From Candidatus Bathyarchaeota archaeon (GTDB taxonomy: Archaea > Thermoproteota > Bathyarchaeia > Bathyarchaeales > Bathycorpusculaceae), in assembly GCA_963811105.1 (NCBI GenBank), contig CAWEPZ010000009.1, positions 64,001-128,000 of the forward strand: a DNA stretch of 64,000 nucleotides, given 5' to 3'. This document shows, piece after piece, positions 51,282 to 64,000 of this stretch; position 1 is the first letter of the stretch; each line of letters begins with the position of its first letter. The translations under genes and the position numbers were made by a program. The notes under the pieces were generated by a model that was given only the letters and a program-made list of their open reading frames with translations, was not told the origin of the DNA and searched no databases.

Positions 51282-51348
51282 TCAGTTTTGTCATGGAATG
51301 CTATAAGCCTTTCATGCGCCAGTTGACAAAAACATCAACCAAACAAGT

Positions 51349-51903
51349 TTAATCGCATTTTTTGATTTTTAGCAGCTTAGTCTGCATGTCAACTATTTCA
51401 GCGCTGTTCTTTGCCTGAATATAATTTTCAAGCAACATGGCGTTCAACTCAAAAAAAGTATGTCCCCACGTAAAAATTGACAAAAGCAGTTCGGATTCTT
51501 TCTTGAAGCCCGCAATGTACAAGGCGGCAGCTATGGCTTCAGCGGTAGTTAGTTTTGTCAGTTTACCGTAATTAACGGGGTTTCCCGCGATAAGGATGGG
51601 CAAACACCGGCTGGTCCCCCTAACAAGTCCACTCATAACCTTTTGTGCATGCTCCCAGCTGCAATCTAGCGCAGCTAAACCAAATTGTTCAATTCGTTCT
51701 CTGTCTGCAGGTGAAAAAGCTATTTCACCAAAAGGATTTAGCACTATGGCCCGTTTCGGTAGAAATTTTGTGCTATTAACTATCCTGGCTAGTCCTCGAC
51801 GTTTTAGCCTTAGTGCTGTGTTTTTCTTGGGATCATCTTGGGCAGCGTGATAGATAGAAACGTGTACAGGTATGGTAAGTAATGCTGCTCGGTTATTTTC
51901 CAC
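51349..51903 (-). CDS. tsr3: rRNA aminocarboxypropyltransferase Tsr3
   Basis: QDDPKKNT, LDCSW, LIAGNPVNYGK..LTTAEA, FTWGHTF..LN. Confidence 0.93.
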   Translation of the reverse strand: MENNRAALLTIPVHVSIYHAAQDDPKKNTALRLKRRGLARIVNSTKFLPKRAIVLNPFGEIAFSPADRERIEQFGLAALDCSWEHAQKVMSGLVRGTSRCLPILIAGNPVNYGKLTKLTTAEAIAAALYIAGFKKESELLLSIFTWGHTFFELNAMLLENYIQAKNSAEIVDMQTKLLKIKKCD

Positions 51904-53434
51904 TTGGTTTACGCACCTTCAAGTGGCTCATGGGGTCATCTAATACTCTTGGAATCCAATCAATAATGTCAGTTGCTACCATATGAAAACCAATTTCGTT
52001 TGCAACAAAGTCGCCTGCAGCACCATTAACAAACGCTCCTGCCACTGCAGCCTCAAATGGATCAACCTTCTGCGCCATTAAACCGCTCACGATCCCGCTT
52101 AGAACATCACCTGTTCCGCCAACAGTCATGCCTGGGTTGCCCGTGAAATTTAGCTTAACCCTTTCTGAATCGCAGACGATGTCAACTTTGCTTTTTACAA
52201 GGATGACTGCGTTAAGTTTGTTTGCGGTTTTCTGCACTGCGCTTATGCGTTCGTTTAGTTTTTCGGGTAATGTTTCGTCCGTGAGTATGGTATATTCACC
52301 TGCGTGAGGTGTCAAAACAAGTGGCGTTTTTAGGGGTCTTTTGAATTTGGCGAAGGCTTTAAGTCCATCAGCATCCAAAAGCAAAGGTTTCCCAGCCTTC
52401 TCAACTTCGTCAACGCAGATCCTTACGAAATCTGCAGTTTCAGGGTTTAATCCCAAGCCTGGACCTATCGCCACGGCATCAACCATGTTCAAATAAGGTT
52501 TCAGCGTTTCCATATTTCTCGGTTTTAGATTGTCACTTTCAAGCTTTATGGTAATTAAGTCAGGAGACATCGAAGAAATAGCATAAGCCACCTTGGTTGG
52601 AGCTGCCAGATAAACAAGATCCACCCCTGTTCGCAGGGCGCCCAACGAAACTAGTGTAGGAGCGCCTGAATAAACCTCACTTCCGCCAATCACAAGCAAT
52701 CGCCCAAAGTCACCCTTATGAGCTGTCGGATTGCGCAGCACTTCTACGAGGTAAACGTCGCCTGGACCAGCGAACTGTTCTATTTCCTGGGGCACCCCTA
52801 TGCCTTTTACAATTAGCTCGCCAACATACTTTTTCGCCTTGGTAAGTCCCGTTTTTTCTTTATGAAAAGTAATTGTTAAATTAACTTTTGCCGCCGTGCC
52901 ATAGACTTCACCAGTTTCTGAATCTACTCCCGTTGGCACATCAATCGCAATTTTATAAGCCGTTAAGGCATTGATATAATTGGCCATTTGAAAGATTGGC
53001 GGTTTAAGTTTTCCTTTGGTTCCAATGCCTAATAAAGCATCAATTACTACGTCTGCTTCGATTTTAGGTAGGATTGAACTGTCGGTTACTTCAAACAGAG
53101 TAATTTTATCTTGCAGCGATTCGAGAATAGCCCAATTTTTCATTGCCATATCATGACTTATATCTCGAGCTTTGCCAGCCAGAACAACCGTGACCGTGTA
53201 GCCTGCTGCTAAGAGATGTCTAGCCGCCACAAATCCGTCCCCGCCATTTCCGCCTAACCCGCAGAAAATGACTATTTTCTTTTCCTTTGGAAATCTCGAA
53301 ATAATTTCTTGAGCTATGTCGCGTCCTGCATTCTCCATTAACACAAGCAGACTTATACCATAGTATTCAGCGTTGGCTTCCAAGGCCCGCATTTCTCTGC
53401 ATTTGATAATCGGGTTTCTTACTTTTGCTTGCAT
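51893..53434 (-). CDS. nnr: Bifunctional NAD(P)HX epimerase/dehydratase
   Basis: LMENAG, GNGGDG, DVPTG, HKGDFG, GPGLG, TPHAGE, GGTGDVL. Confidence 0.95.
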   Translation of the reverse strand: MQAKVRNPIIKCREMRALEANAEYYGISLLVLMENAGRDIAQEIISRFPKEKKIVIFCGLGGNGGDGFVAARHLLAAGYTVTVVLAGKARDISHDMAMKNWAILESLQDKITLFEVTDSSILPKIEADVVIDALLGIGTKGKLKPPIFQMANYINALTAYKIAIDVPTGVDSETGEVYGTAAKVNLTITFHKEKTGLTKAKKYVGELIVKGIGVPQEIEQFAGPGDVYLVEVLRNPTAHKGDFGRLLVIGGSEVYSGAPTLVSLGALRTGVDLVYLAAPTKVAYAISSMSPDLITIKLESDNLKPRNMETLKPYLNMVDAVAIGPGLGLNPETADFVRICVDEVEKAGKPLLLDADGLKAFAKFKRPLKTPLVLTPHAGEYTILTDETLPEKLNERISAVQKTANKLNAVILVKSKVDIVCDSERVKLNFTGNPGMTVGGTGDVLSGIVSGLMAQKVDPFEAAVAGAFVNGAAGDFVANEIGFHMVATDIIDWIPRVLDDPMSHLKVRKPSGK

Positions 53435-53540
53435 ATTTAATGCCCTTGCTAATTTATGCTGCAGGTTAAAAGATAAGCCTATCTTTATTGTATACGAAAG
53501 CATCACCAAAACACACTTTTAACTGGCTCTAAAGTGGAAT

Positions 53541-53988: not shown

Positions 53989-54726
53989 GTGTGTTGTTTG
54001 GAAAAGAAATATTTAATAACAAATTCAGATGCCCTGTTGATAACTGATATCCAAAGAGATTTCTTGCCCGGAGGCGCATTGCCCGTTGCTGACGGTGACG
54101 AAATAATACCTGTTCTTAACGAGTATGCGAGGCGTTTTGAAGACGCAAAAGCACATGTTTTTGCTTCTAGAGATTGGCATCCTCCCAATCATATGTCATT
54201 TAAAACGCAAGGAGGTCCTTGGCCGCCTCACTGTATACAAGATACTTTAGGTGCAAAGTTTAGTCCTGACCTTAAACTTCCTGAAGGCATTGTTGTAATT
54301 TCTAAGGCCACTAACCCTGAACATGAAAGCTACTCGGTTTTTGATGGAACCAGCTTCGCTCATGAACTGGAAATGTGCGAGGTAAAGCGACTTTTCATTG
54401 GAGGTTTAGCCACAGATTATTGTGTAGTAAACACGGTTCTTGATGCTCGTAAGCTTGGCTACGAAACAATAGTGCTTATGGACGCAACCTTAGGTATTAA
54501 CGTGGAGCCAGACGATGCTAAAAAGGCAGTTGAGGCGATGCAGAACGCTGGAGCTAAACAAATAACAATGGCTGATTTTCCAGACGAAATTGATGCCTTG
54601 CCAATGGATGAAGCTGAAGAAGACGTAATGGAGGAGAAGCCTTCCGAAAGGGCAGCAGTAAAGAAAAAAGCTCGAATGCGCCCTAAAGGTACTTCAAAGA
54701 GGGTTCGCACAGAGAGAAAAAGCTAA
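53989..54726 (+). CDS. pncA: Nicotinamidase/pyrazinamidase
   Basis: DIQRDFLPGGAL, DWHP..H, WPPHC, GLATDYCV. Confidence 0.92.
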   Translation: MCCLEKKYLITNSDALLITDIQRDFLPGGALPVADGDEIIPVLNEYARRFEDAKAHVFASRDWHPPNHMSFKTQGGPWPPHCIQDTLGAKFSPDLKLPEGIVVISKATNPEHESYSVFDGTSFAHELEMCEVKRLFIGGLATDYCVVNTVLDARKLGYETIVLMDATLGINVEPDDAKKAVEAMQNAGAKQITMADFPDEIDALPMDEAEEDVMEEKPSERAAVKKKARMRPKGTSKRVRTERKS

Positions 54727-55284
54727 TCTTCTTCGAAATACTGCGAAGCTTATATAATCATAGGCTTTCTCACCTAAAAACCGCGAGCAACAAGGGGACT
54801 ATTGCTCGCTGAACCTTAAAGGATTGCCATTGCAGACCACCCGCTTGCATTTTCATTTCAAAATGAACAAAAGTACCACCTAACTTCAACGTAAAGATTC
54901 TAAAAACGCTAAGAAACAGGTTCAATCCAAATCGCTCCAAGGCTATTACGTGTGGTTAACCGAACTAATTTGCCTTTATCTCTGTTTAATAAATCGTTAC
55001 GAATTTTGGTTTCTATCCTGTCCATAGATTTATGTTTGTGGCGAGATGATTTTGTGGCTCCCCCAATCTGAGTTTATGAGTTTTCTGTTTACTAAATTTT
55101 TTTTAGAGCGAAATTTATTCGAATGGGCACTTTTTACAATAAATAGTTAAAACACCGCGTTTTGGCGTAGGGAATTACTACTAAACAATTAAAAAACACG
55201 TTAATTGGGTTGTTTTCTACCATTCGAGAAACGAAAAATTGATAACTTTATGAAAAAGATGCTATCGTTCGATTCTTTGGTTTC

Positions 55285-55701
55285 TTATTGCTCGCCCATG
55301 ATTTGGATTATTACGGTTCTTTTTCTAGGGTAGACATCAGTTTCTACAAACATTAAAGATTGCCAGGTTCCAAACGTCACGTTACCGTCAACTATTGGCA
55401 AGGTTTTGTCTGGCGGAAGCAGTATGGATCGTAGATGAGAATGAGCGTTAGAAGGATGCTGGTACGCTTTATGTTTAGGCGCAAGCTCTTCAAGCAACGC
55501 CTTAATATCATCAATAAGGGCATCATCGTTTTCTGTTAAAATTATGATGCCTGTTGCGTGAGGAGCAAAAACGTGGACTAAACCATTTCGGATGCCCGAG
55601 CGCAAGACCTCTTCCTGGATTTTGTTAGATAGGTCTACGAAGTCAATTTCGCCTTTAGTGTTAAAGCTGTGACTTCTGTTTACAACCTTAAAGTTCGACA
55701 T
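55285..55701 (-). CDS. YjbQ family (secondary thiamine-phosphate synthase) protein
   Basis: PHATG..ENDD, NAHSHLRS, GTWQSL. Confidence 0.9.
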   Translation of the reverse strand: MSNFKVVNRSHSFNTKGEIDFVDLSNKIQEEVLRSGIRNGLVHVFAPHATGIIILTENDDALIDDIKALLEELAPKHKAYQHPSNAHSHLRSILLPPDKTLPIVDGNVTFGTWQSLMFVETDVYPRKRTVIIQIMGEQ

Positions 55702-55749
55702 TGCAAGCTTTTCTCCAACTGGTGTACAGGTAAAAATGGTTGAAAAACT

Positions 55750-56160
55750 TTTCTAAGGTCTTGAGCTTTCGAGTGCACCACCAGTCAAGTCGTCTACTAA
55801 TTTCATGTCTCTTGTGATTTGCTTCGGCAACCGAAGACTAAAAAACAGGCAAGGATATAAATAATTTTAAAGTAATATGTAGTTTCTAATAAACACTTTC
55901 CTGCTATTTTAATTATAAATGTATAATGTAAACATTGTGAAACGTTTTCGCTTCACAAAAAGATCTTATACTAATTATTTTTTCCAAGTCAAATGTCAAA
56001 AAATGGAATATTCATTTTTTAGACCAAAAAATGCATTTATTAACGCCAAAATAAGCATAGTTTAGATAATTTTGCCTTTCTTTAAGTTTTTTTCAACCCA
56101 GTTTAATCTAAAAAAAGCATTTACATGCCGTTTAATACTATATTTTTGAATTTTCCCTTT
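55750..56160 (-). ncRNA. Candidate structured RNA E (or long yjbQ leader)
   Basis: Minus-strand hairpins TTGTGAAGCG-AAAA-CGTTTCACAA, GGCAT-GTAA-ATGCT and CTTCGG-TTG-CCGAAG behind a TTAAATA box. Confidence 0.4.
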
Positions 56161-56369
56161 CCTGGCGTAATGTATATTTAATCTTCGACGATGTTCGAAG
56201 TTTTCAGTGCCTTCGGAGTAGAAGTTAAGTCAGGTAAAAGAGTTTTAGCCGTTTTCTATTGATGCTTTCGTGTACTAAACCAAAATAAATAATGAATCCT
56301 TAATTAACGATTTAGGAATTAGTAACACTCTATGAACCTGCTCTTGCATTAAAATTATTGGTATTATAG

Positions 56370-57076
56370 TTGGTGGGCTAGTTTCTGAGGTAGGTATATT
56401 TTTGTTACTGCTCAAAGCGGCCCAAATGAAATTAGCACATAAATTCATATGCCACACAAGATCAAAGCAAACAGTCTTCTACAGCTTACAAGTCACTTTT
56501 GCCTGTAAACCAAGGTGTTACACTAACAATTGGAGCCCGGAACGAGTGTTAACCTTAACACTTGCTACTCACAAGTAAAGGTACCTAATTTTGACAGAGG
56601 CACAGAAGCTGACCCGATAAACATCAGGATGACTCAATCGTTTCACCGCTGTAATTAATGTCTTGAATAAACGGATAGGCTAAGGCGCGTAATTGAAAAT
56701 GCAATTATGAATCAAACTTCAGCTCATGCTCAGTACTTTGTAAAGAAAAACAAAAAGGCAGTTAAAAGTGGAGTATGGAGACATAGCTTTAGCATAGCTG
56801 CAAATAGCGATTTGATGGCTGGTTACCTTTGGCGTTTTCGACTCTACGGTTCTTTCAAACAAATTGATAACTAATCCTGGAGCCCTTTCAAGCCTTCTTT
56901 TCGCATGGGTTAGAGGTTCTCTGTGACGTAAATGTAGGCCGATATTTGGGGGGGTGGAACAACCTCCCAGTAGGAAATCATCCTTACCCTCCATGAGTGC
57001 AAGAATGATTTTGATTTAGGCAAGGTAAAGCTTTGCCCGGTTTGACAACTCCGAACTCTCAAACTGCCAGCCTAAA
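56370..57076 (+). ncRNA. Candidate ~700-nt structured RNA C
   Basis: At least 8 stems, several with G-U pairs valid only on the + strand; no credible ORF. Confidence 0.55.
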
Positions 57077-57934
57077 ACACCGCAACATCAACACCTAACC
57101 CATTAATCCCTCCATCGCTGTTCGTTCCAGAATATCTAACAGTTGTTGCTTTCATAGCAATATTGGTAATCATAAGAGATATTAGCCCGTAAGAAAACCG
57201 TCAACTTAACCCAAGCTGAATGAGTTTGGGCGATGCTTTTGTATACAGAAATGATTTGCCGATTATCTATGAAGGCACCTTAAGCTTCAAATAATGGTGA
57301 ATAAACTGGGCATGCTTTTTTCTTTATTTAGAAATCATACACGCCTAAAATCTTATTTTGACAACTGCTTCTAAGGGTTTGAAAAATTTTGCGTCAAGGT
57401 TTTTCCTTAATTGTCCTATTGATGTGGCGCGTTCTTCTTGTCGGTTGCAGCTGTGATGGTCAATAATTAGTATTACTCATAGCACTAAGGTCACACAACA
57501 CATTTTTTAGATCAAGCAATGCCCTTAAGTTTAGCAAAGTTTAGGTTGGATTGAGACTTGCAATAGTGTGCTTGGATAAAAATAAAGGCAAAAAAGTTTC
57601 CCAAAGAACAACGAATTGTTCGCTTTGTTGCATTAATAAGGGCTCAGTTAATCAAAAAGAAATTGTCATTAAACTGTATTTACCTGCCGCTTCACCAGCA
57701 TTAATAAACTCTCAAGCTTTTGAGTTCTCCTTACTATAGTATTTGATTATTTCATTTTTCCTGCGCTCTGATATTGGAATAGAGTGTTTTATGAATGGTG
57801 AGATATGTTTTAAGAAATTAGAGTGACTAACTTTCGAGATATTTGGAGATTTTATAAAATTTCAAAGGTAGCCCGTCCTTGTCGTCAGGAATGCTTATTT
57901 TCTTTTTAAAAAAGGATTTTGCACTTTGGCTAAT

Positions 57935-58285
57935 ATAATTTTGACTAGTTACCTATCCGAGTTTATAGTCATCTGAGTTTTTTGCCGAGTAACAAAGTTC
58001 GTTGTTTTTTGTTCTATCAACACTCATGCAGTTCTGTTAAAGAAAGGAGTGTTAGCACGCAATTCCGACTCTTCAGGCAATTCCAAACAAGGAGAAAAGT
58101 GTGCGGCAAATTTCTTCTTCTTTACAAGCTTTTGGAAAAAGGAGGACACGGTGCTGCCGCCGATTGTTCATCATCTTTCAGAGAAGAACAACACCCAACG
58201 CTACCACAAATCGTTGTTCGTCTAATCTTCAAGATTTTTTGTGTTATTTCCTTGCTTAAGATTAACGGTCCATCGTTAACCCCAT
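57935..58285 (-). ncRNA. Candidate structured RNA A with K-loop
   Basis: GGGGTTAACG/CGTTAATCTT, GAACAACG/TGTTGTTC and TAACACTC/GAGTGTTG stems; TCTGA-AAG-ATGATGA motif. Confidence 0.5.
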
Positions 58286-58459
58286 TTTAATAAAAAAGTA
58301 TTAAATAAAGCTTATTTTGCCATAAACATAGTAGTAAAAGCTTGTTTTTTAGCGAAATATGAAAACCAAAAAAGAACGTCATTATTTTCTATGGAAACGA
58401 TAATTTAAAACCTCAGATTAAGGCTAAAATCATTAAATATCCTCATTTTAGCCTTTTAG

Positions 58460-58912
58460 CTAGGTGGCTTAGGAGAGTCGCATGGGGAATATCGGGGCCT
58501 CATATAAGTACCCTCGAAAATCTCCATGCGAAGCGGAAACCAGTTTTTTCGGCTTTACTTCGAACTTTTTGGGAAGTTTTTGTTGGATTTGAGAAACTCC
58601 GCCGATTTCTACGAAAAAATCTTACTAACAAAATTTCGGTGCGGTTAAGGAACTAGCAATGATTTTGGTGTCCGGTAGCTTTGGCCGTTCATCATGGCTT
58701 TGGAACGACGTCATTTGCATCAAAATTATTATGCAAGAAGTAAGGCTCTCAGTCAGGGCTATTCGGGAGGTTGGTAATCTTCTTTTGAATTCCACTGGGC
58801 TAATTGGCAGGTAATGAATCTAACGCCAAAAACGCGTGCGTCATTATGAGACGTTAGTTTTGTGATTTGTATCCAAGCCGGCTTTGCGTAAAGCAGTGGT
58901 TGCCGGATAGGG
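58460..58912 (+). ncRNA. Candidate ~450-nt structured RNA B
   Basis: 11-bp and 13-bp stems with nested hairpins and + strand G-U pairs; TTAAATA box at 58433. Confidence 0.6.
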
Positions 58913-59266
58913 GTGTGTTTGGTTGATGCTTCTGTATACCATTCGATTATTTTTGTATTTTCACCGAGCTAACTTTGGATAAATCTTAGCCCTTAGTGGT
59001 TTTGTTTCGGGTTCTTTTTTGGTTCAGCGTTAGCTTTGTAGGTGTTTAAGGTAGTCTAAACTGTCAATAATTTGGGTGCTTGAATGTTGGCTTTTATCTT
59101 ATCGGTTGCTTCAGTTGCTGAAGTATTACTTATTTTTTGTCCATCACCAGTTACCTCCAGTGCACACCAAGTTAATTCAGCGTATATAAAAGCATAACCT
59201 AAACCCACTTTTTCGGATCATCATAGCAATATTTTTTATTCCTAAAACCCGTTATATAGCGAATAC

Positions 59267-59716
59267 TTGAGGGGTAAACTGTTGAGCAAAGAGATTGACC
59301 GAATCAGACTTCGTCGTTGGCGTAAACGAGGATTCTACAGCGAAACCGTGTTGGTCAAGCTCCTGCAGAAAAAAGGTTACTACGCGGTACGGGTCCCCGT
59401 TAGCAACCCCAGCCTCAATCCACTGCCAGATATAATGGCGCGAAAAGGGCTCCACAATTATGCTTTTGAAGTAAAAAATGCTAGCTACTACGCTTATTTT
59501 CCCAAAGAACAAATCGACAAACTCTTCCGGTTTCTAGACCAGTTTATTCCCTCCGATCATGCTCACAAACATGCCGTGGTTGCAGCGCACCTGGGCAAGC
59601 GGTGGCTTTTCAAAGAAATCAGCTGGACGGATTGGGAGAAAAATAAGCTTCCAGGCAAAGTAAGAATCCTTAAGCGGGACAGGGGAAACCTAAACATGGA
59701 CACAACATACAGTTGA
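59267..59716 (+). CDS. Hjc-family Holliday junction resolvase-like nuclease
   Basis: RGFYSE..GYYAVRVP.S..PDIMA..AFEVK. Confidence 0.8.
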   Translation: MRGKLLSKEIDRIRLRRWRKRGFYSETVLVKLLQKKGYYAVRVPVSNPSLNPLPDIMARKGLHNYAFEVKNASYYAYFPKEQIDKLFRFLDQFIPSDHAHKHAVVAAHLGKRWLFKEISWTDWEKNKLPGKVRILKRDRGNLNMDTTYS

Positions 59717-59771
59717 CCTTGTAAAGCAATTTACCTCAAGTTATATAATTGCTAAGATAATACTTCATTAA

Positions 59772-60479
59772 ATGTGCAAGGGCGCTGAAATGTCAGAAGA
59801 AGACGCGATGGTTTGTACGCAAGTTTTAGGTCGAACTTATCAATTAGGGAATGCTAAAGTTGAAGTGCTAAAAGACATAACTTTGTCAATTCCAACTGGA
59901 ACATTTGTCGCGTTATGCGGTCCCTCAGGCTCGGGTAAAACCACTCTTCTCAATCTAATAAGTGGAATCGATAGGCCCACGAGCGGCAAAATTTTTGTGT
60001 CAGGTCAAGATTTGACTATTCAGGATGAAGATTTCTTGTCCGATTTTCGATGCAATAATGTGGGTTTTGTTTTTCAAGCGTACAATTTAGTTTCAACTTT
60101 AACGGTCGCTGAGAATGTTGCGTTTCCAATGGAATGGGCGCGGAAGCCTGAGGATGAAATAGAAAAAAGAGTAAATGAACTTCTTGAAATGGTGGGCTTA
60201 AAGCAGCGAATGAATCATTTTCCAGCTCAACTAAGCGGTGGTGAACAGCAGCGGGTTGCCTTTGCTAGAGCACTAGCTAATGATCCTCCCCTAGTTCTTG
60301 CAGATGAACCAACAGGTAATTTAGATGCGAAAAATGCTCAAAAAATCATTCAAGTCCTTCAGCTGTTGAAGCAAAATGGCAAAACAATCATTGTTTCCAC
60401 TCATGATACTGAAATTAGACAGTTGGCTGACCAAGTTGTATGCCTAGAGGATGGCAAATTGGCGAGCGTGGATGATTAA
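59772..60479 (+). CDS. LolD/MacB-type ABC ATPase
   Basis: [25 protein letters not shown]. Confidence 0.93.
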
Positions 60480-62349
60480 AACCAATTTTCCCATAAACGA
60501 CTTGCTCCGCAGGAAGCTTCAAACGAGTATAACCATTACCACTTTAACGTTAAGTGTAGCTTCCACATTGTTTCTTTTGCTATTTACTAATCGCTTAGGT
60601 TTTGGAGCAACCGTAACAGTTGGTAGTTTAACTCAAGGATTAACAGCTATCTTTTCCCAATTTACGCTATTTATTGGCGTATTGATTTTTGTGATCGGAG
60701 CAGTGTTAGCTTCTTTTGTTGCTTTCTTAATGATGACTCAAAGAACTCGAGATTTTGGTTTAATCAAGGCAGCTGGATGCCCAAACAGTTTGGTTGGGGG
60801 ATACTTAATGGCTGAGCTGCTGACAACTACATTGATCGGCTGCATTTTGGGCGTTGGTCTTGGTTTTTTAATGGATTACAGCATTTCCTACACGGTTTTT
60901 TCTGGGTATCAGTTCCCTAATTTTTGGTTTTTACCTCTGGTTTTTGTGGCCTTTTTTGTTTTATCATTTTCTTTTGGTCTTCAACCAATTCTTAAAGCAG
61001 CTAGAATGTCTCCTATGCAGGCGCTTTCACCGGTTAACTATTATGGGTTAACTGCAACCACAGGCAAGCATAGGCCCTTGTCACATTCTGCGTTAACTTG
61101 GCGTATTGCCACAAGGAGCCTGTTTCGTAGGCAGTCGGCAAGTATCCGAATTATTGTTTTGTTGTCTACAGTGTTTCTTTTGCTTACGGTTTCTGTTGCA
61201 GGAGGCATAATTGCGCGTGATACTACCGTTTCCTGGGTTCAAAAAACAGTTGATAAAGACACAATTGCAATAGCGCATAACGCGATGGGCAACCAATATA
61301 GACAGCTTTTGTTTGAATTTTCTGGTGTCAGGAATACGGGTAATTTCGACTATTCAGACTCGCAGCTGGCTATTCCAGACAATATTATTGAACAACTAAA
61401 TTCTTTACATAGTGTGAGTTTGGTTGATGCACGATTAATTTTGAAGAAGCATATTAAAGAAGTTTCAAACTTTACCATTTTTCCTGATACTGAGCAAACC
61501 GTTAATGTCGGAGATGATAGACAAGGAGACAGCATAGTTGTAGGTGTTAATCCACAAAAACTGTCAGGGTCATGGTATACTCAAGGGCAATTTCTGACTG
61601 CTAAAGATAGTCTTGAAGCTGTTGTAGGTGATTCCATAGCTCATCAAATGTACTCATCTAACCCTGGCAAAGGAATTGTTTTATCTGATCCTCTGGTTGA
61701 AGGCTTAGAACTGCAAAATAGTACTTTTGACATCATTGGGGTAGCTGTTGACCCGCTAAATAATGGTTTGGTAATTTATGTGCCCATTGAAGTATTGATG
61801 AACATTACTGGTAACTCTAGCCCCAACTTGCTGTTAGTTAAGCTAAGCAATTCAACCGACCGCTCCGAAGTTCTCGCCCAAATCAAATCATTAATACAAC
61901 CTGTAGATCCTGATTTGAACGTGTTTATTTTGAATGATGTTGTTGCAAAAAATACGGATTTCTTAGCTTCATCCTGGCAAACGATCATGCTTCTACCGAT
62001 TTTTACTTTAGTTTCTGCAATGCTGTGCTTGGTGGGTTACTTGATGCTTGCTGTAGATGAACAGCACCAAGAATTCGCTGTTTTACGGGCTGTGGGAGCT
62101 AAACCAAAAGTAATAGTCACTATTTTGGCGATTCAAAGCGTATTTGTGCTTATTTCCAGTTTTGCAGCTGGAATACCTCTCGGCACAGTAATAACCTATA
62201 TTATTCTGATGCATCAACCGCTCGTCACAATCTTTACCGTTTTTCAAATAAGCGGGTGGCTTCTTGCAGCTTTGATTGGAATGTTTCTGTTTAGCCTTTA
62301 CCCTGCGTTGAAGCTAGCCAAAACTTCCATCTTAAAAATTATGACTTAA
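60472..62349 (+). CDS. FtsX-like ABC permease (two FtsX modules)
   Basis: QRTRDFGLIKAAG and EFAVLRAVGA motifs, multiple TM helices. Confidence 0.88.
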   Translation: MIKTNFPINDLLRRKLQTSITITTLTLSVASTLFLLLFTNRLGFGATVTVGSLTQGLTAIFSQFTLFIGVLIFVIGAVLASFVAFLMMTQRTRDFGLIKAAGCPNSLVGGYLMAELLTTTLIGCILGVGLGFLMDYSISYTVFSGYQFPNFWFLPLVFVAFFVLSFSFGLQPILKAARMSPMQALSPVNYYGLTATTGKHRPLSHSALTWRIATRSLFRRQSASIRIIVLLSTVFLLLTVSVAGGIIARDTTVSWVQKTVDKDTIAIAHNAMGNQYRQLLFEFSGVRNTGNFDYSDSQLAIPDNIIEQLNSLHSVSLVDARLILKKHIKEVSNFTIFPDTEQTVNVGDDRQGDSIVVGVNPQKLSGSWYTQGQFLTAKDSLEAVVGDSIAHQMYSSNPGKGIVLSDPLVEGLELQNSTFDIIGVAVDPLNNGLVIYVPIEVLMNITGNSSPNLLLVKLSNSTDRSEVLAQIKSLIQPVDPDLNVFILNDVVAKNTDFLASSWQTIMLLPIFTLVSAMLCLVGYLMLAVDEQHQEFAVLRAVGAKPKVIVTILAIQSVFVLISSFAAGIPLGTVITYIILMHQPLVTIFTVFQISGWLLAALIGMFLFSLYPALKLAKTSILKIMT

Positions 62350-63039
62350 ACTACTGAAAGATTTAGTAAAATACTTTAGCGATTCAATGTGCAGTGGCAT
62401 TTGGTTTATGAAATCTTGCAGCTGCAATATAGGTACGATGGGAACGTTATCATAAAACTTGAATGAACTTGGAAGAAGCGATAATACAACTGGGATGAAT
62501 TTGGCGCTACTCCATTTTGTGCATTCAAGTGTTAATTTGATATTGGGTAAAATATCTACCAGAGCGTTTGTTCGCTCTACCTGTGAATCAACAATTCTTC
62601 TCAATGCTGAAGGTGCTATTGAGTGCTGCCAATGTTTACAATCCACACAAATAACTGTGGGTTTTTTGCAGCCGATGACGTCTATTTCGTACTTGCGTGT
62701 GGCATTTTTAAACCGAACGTTGTTTGTTACCGTGTATCCGAAGGTTTTTAGTGCAAAACCAGCTATTTCCTCAAACTCTTGCCAACAAAGCAAATGGCTC
62801 GTCTGCTCTGAATCAGCTCCTAAAGAAACCGCTTTAACAGCTAATTTCAACCGTGCGTTGCTTTCAGCTGTTACCTTGCCTGATTCCAAATTAACTAATC
62901 CTTCATTTTGCAGTTTATCAAGCAACTTCGTTGATGTAGCTGATAATATGCGCGCATCCTTGTTGACATTTTCAGTTAAAACAGCTCCTTTTTTGGTTAA
63001 TTTGAGAAGCGAAATTATCAGATTACGTTCAACACTCAC
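62332..63039 (-). CDS. wHTH plus Mrr-like PD-(D/E)XK restriction-endonuclease-fold protein
   Basis: WQEFEE..FGY..EIDVIG..VDCKHW. Confidence 0.8.
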   Translation of the reverse strand: MSVERNLIISLLKLTKKGAVLTENVNKDARILSATSTKLLDKLQNEGLVNLESGKVTAESNARLKLAVKAVSLGADSEQTSHLLCWQEFEEIAGFALKTFGYTVTNNVRFKNATRKYEIDVIGCKKPTVICVDCKHWQHSIAPSALRRIVDSQVERTNALVDILPNIKLTLECTKWSSAKFIPVVLSLLPSSFKFYDNVPIVPILQLQDFINQMPLHIESLKYFTKSFSSLSHNF

Positions 63040-63199
63040 TTCAAAACCTCAACCAAATTAATACTTAAGGAGCAAAAAAACTGCTAAAATAATAGAACAT
63101 AACCCTGCATATCGCTGAATCGTATACAAAAGCATCAACCAAACATACTTTAAAATAGTTTAAGACATATTATCCTCGAATAATTTCTACGATTCTTTT

Positions 63200-63655
63200 C
63201 AATAAGCCCCTCTTCGTCCTATTGCTAAAGTTTATGGTTATCTTAGAGAAATACCCTTCTGCTTTCCGCACCATACAAAACCAGCCGTTCTTCGCATCTC
63301 GTAGCTCCTTGGAGACAAGAGATTCAGGGTAATTTGACATATAAACTACATTTATAGACAGGGATATGAAGCTTTTTTAGCTTTTAAATGTAAAATAACT
63401 ACGTTCGATTGTTTTTCGCTAATCAAAATTTTAAGAAATGTGTCTAATTGTGAGGAAAATGTGAGCCCAGGCTAAAAAATTTGAGATGTAAGCTAGGAAA
63501 AATATGAAAATAGCTAATCACTATATGCACGCTTTTGCTTAACCTTAAAGAGGGTGATTACAGGCGCTATTTAGGTTAGTTTACAAGATTTTTTGTGACT
63601 TCATATCTGCCGGAAAAATGCTAAGCATTATGCAGGTTAGTTAAGTTCTCTTTTT
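63200..63655 (-). ncRNA. Candidate ~450-nt structured RNA D
   Basis: AAATAGC/GCTATTT with TAATCAC/GTGATTA nested stems, and a long rod AGTTTAT/ATAAACT with AAATTACCCT/AGGGTATTT. Strand assigned mainly from the TTAAATA box. Confidence 0.5.
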
Positions 63656-64000
63656 GGTTTTAGTTTAATGTATATTTAACCTTCGAGGGGCTTCGAGGGA
63701 ATCCACGGTTCAGGGGCAGCTTGAATCGTAATTCTGAATGTGTTCTGTTGATGCTTTCGTATACCAAGCAGTCCTATCGCAATAAGGCTAAGAAAGTATT
63801 TTGTTTGAATAAAAAACTGAAAATTAAGTTTAAGAAAATAGTTATTTCTTTTCGCTTTCTTGGATTTCGCATTGAAGCTTCTTTATTATTTCATCAGCTC
63901 GCAATGGCTCAATTTTGAGCGTGTAGAGTCTACTGGGTGTACGAAGTTTCAATTTAACAATATCTTTAGATCTTTTGACTGAGCAATGCTTTGCTTTTGC

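Follow-up and report, generated by a model that had tools for sequence, protein, structure and literature searches.

The window analysed here, 64,000 nt from a Candidatus Bathyarchaeota archaeon (assembly GCA_963811105.1, contig CAWEPZ010000009.1, positions 64,001 to 128,000), carries repeated copies of a near-invariant 23-nt box, which we lean towards reading as a DNA-level regulatory site of a lineage-specific factor, placed just upstream of elements that resemble the archaeal B recognition element and TATA box (BRE/TATA). The distribution, positions, orientations and conservation of the box can be read directly from the genomes compared, as can the lack of structure and of conservation elsewhere in the gene-free DNA; from these we infer that a protein binds the box and that the box regulates transcription. 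The box, which is lineage-specific, deeply conserved, promoter-side and attached to a defined set of genes, and a candidate small RNA (sRNA) beside one inverted pair of boxes, here called R1, both appear to be new elements. Bathyarchaeia are abundant in soils and sediments. The papers found describe enrichment cultures rather than isolates, and a literature search, over listings and abstract openings, turned up nothing on Bathyarchaeia promoters or non-coding RNAs (ncRNAs).

The repeated stretch is 23–30 bases long and has the motif GTGTTTGGTTGATGCTTYYGTATAC. A scan of the window with the pattern TTGATGCTTYYGTATAC, allowing at most three mismatches, gave eight matches where 0.90 were expected, and 0 of 100 shuffles reached eight. 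This bears out one observation of a first-pass annotation, made from the letters of this DNA alone, that an unrecognised motif of about 30 bp is repeated here. The copies lie at 51344(-), 53512(-), 56253(+), 57224(+), 58917(+), 59204(-), 63144(-) and 63742(+), and two 32-nt arms among them show 91% complementarity. The full assembly of 3.49 Mb (G000) has just two other strong copies, both on a different contig, C11. A search of viral contigs gave one 17-mer match, which is at chance level by rough estimate.

The position of the box relative to genes is consistent between relatives. In the window, the copy at 53490..53512 (- strand) lies in forward orientation upstream of nnr, the NAD(P)HX repair gene, and is followed by the BRE/TATA-like sequence GGCTTATCT. 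A degenerate copy upstream of a LysE-type gene (51322..51344, - strand) is followed by AAAGGCTTATAG, and a copy with 0 mismatches (63122..63144, - strand) stands forward, 83 nt upstream of a Mrr/NERD-like gene, with a divergent partner at 63742..63764 (+ strand). Across the loci compared in the genus, the box is forward at nnr (10/10 loci, 49–59 nt to the start), at the Mrr/NERD-like gene (8/8 loci, 34–95 nt) and at the LysE-type gene (3–4 loci, 41–74 nt), and reverse at hjc (9/9 loci, 59–81 nt), at yjbQ (5 loci, about 63–75 nt) and at GDH (5 genomes, 50–70 nt). Copies are also found ahead of MazG-like, nucleoside phosphorylase, PMT_2 and P-type ATPase genes. A second conserved element, which reads (A)AGGC and then TTATCT, TTATAG or TATAT, separates the box from the gene and is 7–12 nt from the box in forward cases and about 17–32 nt in reverse cases. 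The (A)AGGC-TTATCT element resembles the AAAGC-TTTAAAT pattern that was derived upstream of the 37 tRNA genes of this genome. Because this separate BRE/TATA-like element intervenes, the box can be placed upstream of the core promoter. Moreover, an orientation-independent site beside the core promoters of unrelated genes resembles the binding site of a regulator rather than a directional core promoter, and it does not resemble an RNA motif, since the mRNAs would then carry opposite strands. In recurring at orthologous places before the core promoters of several genes, the box behaves as an archaeal transcription-factor site would.

Several readings of the box as a translated or RNA element were rejected. 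An ATG inside the box could begin a leader peptide, MLxYT; however, the variable YY positions fall on first and second codon positions, the resulting open reading frames (ORFs) of 8–25 amino acids are unrelated, and relatives do not preserve the frame with nnr. The boxes required of C/D and H/ACA RNAs are absent from the motif. The longest nnr ORF (51893–53509, 538 amino acids, TTG start) runs through the box, and the proteins of relatives have 509–513 amino acids. The Pfam domains fit an ATG at 53434, and the extension upstream of it is probably not translated.

The box is conserved in this lineage. Its 15-nt core, GATGCTTYYGTATAC, is present in 61/61 genomes of the genus, with 1–14 copies each and about 5–9 in most near-complete ones; the reversed core, used as a control, gave 2 matches in all of these genomes together. 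In the order the core was found in 67/201 genomes, including 51/53 of the family, all genomes of three small families (3/3, 1/1 and 1/1) and, sporadically, genomes of four other families. Outside the genus the arrangement is simpler: of 10 genomes sampled in other genera and families, 9 have one inverted, convergent pair of boxes 220–291 bp apart, and in 8 of those 9 the pair is the only occurrence. The minimal set is thus a single inverted pair with a spacing of 220–300 bp, and this pair is presumed to be the ancestral form, kept across the order.

In the window this pair is 58917(+)/59204(-). Its forward copy, GTTTGGTTGATGCTTCTGTATAC (58917..58939, + strand), has orthologous copies in relatives; the reverse copy (59182..59204, - strand) is diverged, with 4 mismatches, and is oriented away from hjc, whose start it precedes by 63 nt. 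In other genera the box belongs to a module between yjbQ-GNAT on one side and R1 with LonB-hjc on the other. Neither LonB nor GNAT is present at the locus in this genus, where the pair adjoins hjc. R1 and the pair form a unit whose internal orientation is constant although the genes on either side vary. A 3.3-kb contig (L107) filed under a Limnocylindrales bacterium metagenome-assembled genome carries a 90%-identical copy of this Bathyarchaeal hjc and is likely a binning stray.

The interior of the pair (58940..59181, no strand assigned) contains conserved islands together with a third, degenerate copy of the box. In an alignment of 15 pairs the boxes are invariant, and the islands are TTCACC, TGTAGGCTAA, GGTGA..GGTATTAC, TCACCA and CTCCAG, which in this window take the forms TTCACC, GTAGTCTAA, GTATTAC, TCACCA and CTCCAG; GGTGA/TCACC elements are repeated within the pair. 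Consensus folding of the interior of these 15 pairs gave about zero on both strands apart from the terminal repeat, and the arms in this genome would mispair at 3 positions. What is conserved in the pair is sequence rather than pairing.

From 59035 to 59181, and in the orthologous stretches, many genomes have an open frame that reads M-K-x-F-T-L-x-V-x-L-V-x-x-V-L-L, and within the genus some of the changes look synonymous. A small protein gene was nonetheless rejected: a stop interrupts the 16 codons of this frame in 16/45 rows of the alignment, at least 30 open codons precede the box in only 29/45, and the entropies of the three codon positions are 0.90/1.17/1.30. The appearance of an ORF arises because the 9-bp repeated GGTGAT/GTATTAC boxes coincide with the pattern. 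In other genera a gene for a DtxR-type metal-dependent repressor that carries a FeoA domain lies 1–2 kb from the pair (L023:4824-5525, L025:115-798), with a separate FeoA gene after the DtxR-type gene in one of those loci. The island TGTAGGCTAA resembles the centre of the DtxR/IdeR iron box.

R1 is the candidate sRNA that accompanies the pair (58470..58572, + strand). Its core of about 100 nt comprises a hairpin with helices P1 (7 bp) and P2 (5 bp), an invariant loop, GCCUCAUAUAAGUACC, an invariant CGAAAAUCUCCAUGCGAAG and, after the hairpin, CGAAG...TTCG...CTTCGA boxes. A BRE/TATA-like box, GGAAACGATAATTTAAA (58394..58410, + strand), lies about 60–75 nt upstream and on visual reading is nearly unchanged in the consensus and in 10/12 genus rows; a U-tract is present in this genus. 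A covariance model built from 12 genus sequences matched 85/121 genomes of the family, mostly once per genome, so that R1 may be regarded as a candidate sRNA family in 50 of the 70 sampled genera. A copy of the box was found within about 1.3 kb of R1 in 29/30 loci, and the order R1, forward box, reverse box, all on the strand of R1, holds in at least 20 loci. No R1 is detectable near the pair in genomes beyond the family.

Among 46 distinct R1 sequences, 86% of the cells at paired positions are paired, compared with 28–49% when the partners are slid. Both-sides changes occur in 26 cells, against 14.8 ± 2.8 in shuffles (0/500 reach 26), although such counts can be inflated by relatedness of the sequences. 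The covariation is modest: these changes fall on 5/17 pairs, 4 of them in helix 2. About 40 cells, summed from per-pair rows, are G-U pairs, which are mismatches on the other strand, and R1 was assigned to the + strand because they fit that strand only. Taken together, these features make R1 a candidate for transcription as an sRNA from its own promoter. The boxes required for C/D and H/ACA readings are absent from R1 too. In many genera (L036–L065) R1 is preceded by a phased array in which AAGCC/AGCC comes with A-tracts first and T-tracts afterwards, spaced about 10–11 bp; this suggests bent or multiply bound DNA.

The first-pass annotation had seen about 5 kb without a credible protein gene (54.7–55.3, 55.7–59.2 and 63.05–64.0 kb), tiled with nested stems, and had proposed five or six long structured ncRNAs there. 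Its view of the coding content agrees with the present analysis: the longest ORF in 55702–59262 has 102 amino acids at most, with stop-to-stop frames that look like noise, and the gaps 54727–55284 and 63040–63840 are without an ORF of at least 60 amino acids. Its view of the stems does not. Folding energy was computed for 120-nt windows at a step of 60 over 53.5–64 kb, on both strands, against 24 dinucleotide shuffles each. The 94 non-coding windows had a mean z (+/- strand) of -0.09/-0.12 and the 80 coding windows one of -0.09/-0.20, so that nested stems are not in excess of chance. The 45 windows of 55720–58360 had mean z +0.03/+0.18 (+/- strand) with a minimum of -2.4 and match the coding controls. 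The only outliers are 58420–58540, with z from -3.8 to -5.2, and, at 54700, a terminator-like hairpin 3' of the isochorismatase gene. A folding score near zero is the outcome that had been named beforehand as refuting the proposal.

Conservation gives the same picture. The stretch 55702–59262 was compared by BLAST with 40 other genomes, 24 of the same genus and 16 of other genera of the order. Matches were obtained in 22/24 genus genomes and 0/16 beyond the genus, and they are confined to three parts: a block at about 58246–58616 (core 58478–58563, 77–89% identical), the motif, and the stretch from 58917 to hjc. Nothing corresponding to 55.75–58.2 kb was found in the 24 genus genomes or in any fetched locus except the motif copy at 57224, and homologs in which covariation could support RNAs in 55.7–58.4 kb are thus lacking. 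With folding scores near zero and most of the region without a homolog, even in the genus, the large ncRNA cluster is rejected: apart from R1, the gene-free 5 kb is not a set of large structured RNAs. What stands is a single candidate, R1, with its + strand G-U pairs and its own TATA-like box; the G-U strand asymmetry described for units A, B, C and E, which were given no coordinates, was checked at the conserved R1 hairpin alone, where it holds. The occurrence of the same box upstream of ordinary protein genes in both orientations, across 61/61 genus genomes, speaks for a regulatory site in DNA rather than for the suggested tie of the motif to RNA units or their processing. Rfam 15 at gathering thresholds found two tRNAs and no other match in the whole window; with E values up to 5, nothing credible was found in 54–64 kb, only two weak matches at chance level. 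RNase P RNA and the signal recognition particle RNA are both present elsewhere in the genome, in accord with the earlier remark that the region shows no signature of either. Gene-free, AT-rich DNA with visible hairpins should not be taken as evidence of structured RNA unless it beats shuffled sequence and is conserved.

The gene-free DNA has further features. An orphan copy of the box at 57224..57246 (+ strand) is followed by GCCGATTATCT, and around it only a piece of about 60 nt is conserved, with one relative (92%). A diverged orphan copy lies at 56253..56275 (+ strand). A TATA-like box with a TTCGA-N5-TTCGA box at 56168..56198 (+ strand) is a paralog (84%) of a similar unit at 63666..63696 (+ strand), and the motif follows about 55–60 nt downstream of both. 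Mid-way in the 600-bp gap between the divergent copies at 63144 and 63742 sits a promoter-like box with near-consensus BRE/TATA, AGCTTTTAAAT (63371..63419, + strand), kept in three relatives and twice in one. On the other side, a block beyond the yjbQ stop codon (55097–55285) is kept in the genus and contains a small CGAA..TTCG hairpin and an invariant promoter-like box, AACTATTTATTGTAAAAAG (55145–55175, - strand); this block may represent another small transcript, or else the 3' region of yjbQ.

The remaining spacer (55750..58250, no strand assigned), with its unremarkable folding energy, may be a variable slot between yjbQ and R1 filled with decayed coding or mobile DNA, a possibility that we hold as real but less than probable and that does not exclude the regulatory reading of the box. 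The yjbQ-to-hjc gap ranges from about 1.4 to 4.4 kb in the synteny maps of eleven relatives, and in some of them (G016, G004, G017) it carries unrelated ORFs of 92–444 amino acids that are absent from this genome. A 75-nt piece (58106–58180) is 77% identical to C11:387616-387692 of the same genome and resembles pieces in two relatives; on the - strand it has a short peptide-like reading, 'APCPP', and may be a gene fragment. Near-identical soil metagenome strains differ by about 5–8% in the spacer and by 2.4–3% over hjc, on rough counts from single contigs. Against decay, tblastx of 55.7–59.26 kb with the genome itself and all fetched loci found no relic gene at the protein level, the sole match for the gene-free DNA being 28 amino acids at E 1e-4; this negative rests on the stop-to-stop ORF list and tblastx, large protein databases being outside the scope of the scan. 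If the spacer is decayed, the orphan boxes and TATA-like sequences would be promoters that outlived their genes.

Several observations weigh against a regulator-binding box and an sRNA beside it. Compared with typical archaeal operators, the box has much less degeneracy, and it is long and asymmetric; the pair forms the only copies in most genera, and no regulator gene is its constant neighbour, the DtxR-like gene being near it in some genera only. No cognate binding protein was found, the adjacent winged helix-turn-helix NERD protein having been the only candidate examined. That Mrr/NERD-like protein was rejected as the box binder, as it occurs in 161/201 genomes of the order, box-free families included, and was not found in some pair-bearing genomes. 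The covariation of R1 lies mainly in one 5-bp helix, with 19/46 cells unpaired in two pairs; its single-sequence z is modest (-1.9 on the + strand, -2.6 on the - strand), and its repeated TTCGA boxes, found again beside a TATA box at 56168 and 63666, may be DNA sites. The box also contains GATGC-TTTTGTATA, itself readable as BRE/TATA-like, and a TTAAAAG-like A-rich tract lies 5–12 nt upstream of many copies, so that a promoter role is possible. The box might accordingly be a special, forward-firing core promoter, with either GATGC-TTTTGTATA as its BRE/TATA or the A-rich tract upstream and the box as the spacer from TATA to start. In that case poorly structured, lineage-specific ncRNAs, corresponding to the units proposed earlier, would start from the orphan copies at 56.25, 57.22, 58.92 and 63.74 kb, and the pair would give convergent transcription across its interior. 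TATA-like sequences do follow orphan copies, and two units of this genome share the TATA box, TTCGA boxes and motif. We consider this unlikely, however, given that the reverse cases (hjc 9/9, yjbQ 5, GDH 5) point away from the only conserved gene and that a separate conserved BRE/TATA-like element stands between box and gene. In addition, the would-be TATA departs from the tRNA promoter consensus in its invariant G and variable C positions, and the DNA downstream of orphan copies is neither conserved nor structured.

That the box acts in RNA is more doubtful. Here the inverted copies would form a 23-bp helix closing an RNA of about 250 nt, as a processing stem or protein-recognised duplex, and single copies in 5' leaders would pair in trans with complementary copies. 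Indeed, 17 base pairs are predicted, with 15/15 sequences pairing at most positions, one both-sides change is seen (in G222), and in at least 20 loci the forward copy has R1 upstream of it on its own strand. But it is the sequence that is kept and not the pairing, as the three mispaired positions in the arms of this genome illustrate; the interior is without conserved structure; single copies in both orientations to genes would put opposite strands into the mRNAs; and, with a BRE/TATA-like element downstream of it, the box would seem to lie outside the transcript of the gene. The least probable of these alternatives is a replication-origin-like or chromosome-organisation site, in which the pair and the internal GGTGA/GTATTAC boxes would act as iteron-type boxes and the single copies as secondary sites of the same factor. 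Consistent with such a site are the single pair in each genome and its synteny across the order, the several repeated boxes in about 300 bp with the outer ones inverted, and a low degeneracy like that of origin recognition boxes (ORBs). Yet the pair has no initiator gene adjacent and is not beside orc1/cdc6, and its interior is no AT-rich unwinding element (GC 0.39–0.41, compared with 0.41 for the genome), so it is unlike an archaeal oriC/ORB. A canonical origin lies outside the window next to orc1/cdc6 on contig C11, at about 1354500–1355050, where three ORB-like boxes, of the TCCAGTAGAAAC...GGGGTG type, surround a very AT-rich stretch. GC skew gave no signal at the locus and none at the canonical origin either, and is uninformative in this genome.

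Returning to the regulatory-site reading, the ancestral form, next to hjc and yjbQ, would be one inverted pair enclosing some 250 bp in which there are additional conserved boxes. From there the box would have spread in this genus to the promoters of about 5–12 more genes, the recruits including nnr, the Mrr/NERD-like nuclease, the LysE exporter, GDH, MazG-like and P-type ATPase genes. R1, beside the pair, is probably a small structured sRNA that has a promoter of its own and is about 100–150 nt long. Elsewhere, the gene-free 5 kb would be fast-evolving spacer with orphan boxes and TATA-like sequences, perhaps promoters left by lost genes. A bolder version, which we regard as a long shot, makes the pair, its internal boxes and R1 one ancient Bathyarchaeia regulatory module in which sRNA and DNA box work together, as an RNA-dependent or RNA-sensed switch over 'damage-control' genes (hjc, LonB, nnr, MazG, GDH, yjbQ), or else a second, Orc1-independent origin-like element. 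A near-invariant 23-nt box that marks defined promoters offers a handle on a regulator and its regulon, and could be used as bait.

Known systems share some of these features. Like invertons and miniature inverted-repeat transposable elements (MITEs), the locus has 23-bp inverted repeats flanking a segment of about 250 bp with promoter-like boxes. In contrast to them, the pair is single-copy and syntenic across the order, which led us to reject a MITE or insertion element, for which many dispersed copies would be expected; no recombinase gene was seen among the annotated ORFs neighbouring the pair; and the orientation of the interior relative to R1 is constant in all loci examined. Contigs from four DNA runs over 55600–59800 showed no strand-change joint, but they are low-depth, fragmentary and too sparse to speak for or against inversion. 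Archaeal ORB origins likewise have long, asymmetric, highly conserved inverted boxes that flank a few hundred base pairs, with extra single boxes near promoters, but the box sequence differs, and location and base composition set the pair apart as described. R1 is like small archaeal sRNAs with their own promoter in its BRE/TATA-like box, its hairpin with one-strand G-U pairs and its U-tract in the genus, and unlike them in having neither C/D or H/ACA features nor an Rfam match and in being positionally tied to the box pair. Finally, archaeal upstream activating sites and operators stand beside BRE/TATA, as do the Ptr2 sites in Methanocaldococcus and those of TFB-RF1 in Pyrococcus. The present box similarly adjoins a BRE/TATA-like element at several unrelated genes, in either orientation and at orthologous sites in the manner of a regulon, but differs from these sites in being 23 nt long, asymmetric and near-invariant across an order, and in being represented in most genera by one inverted pair only.

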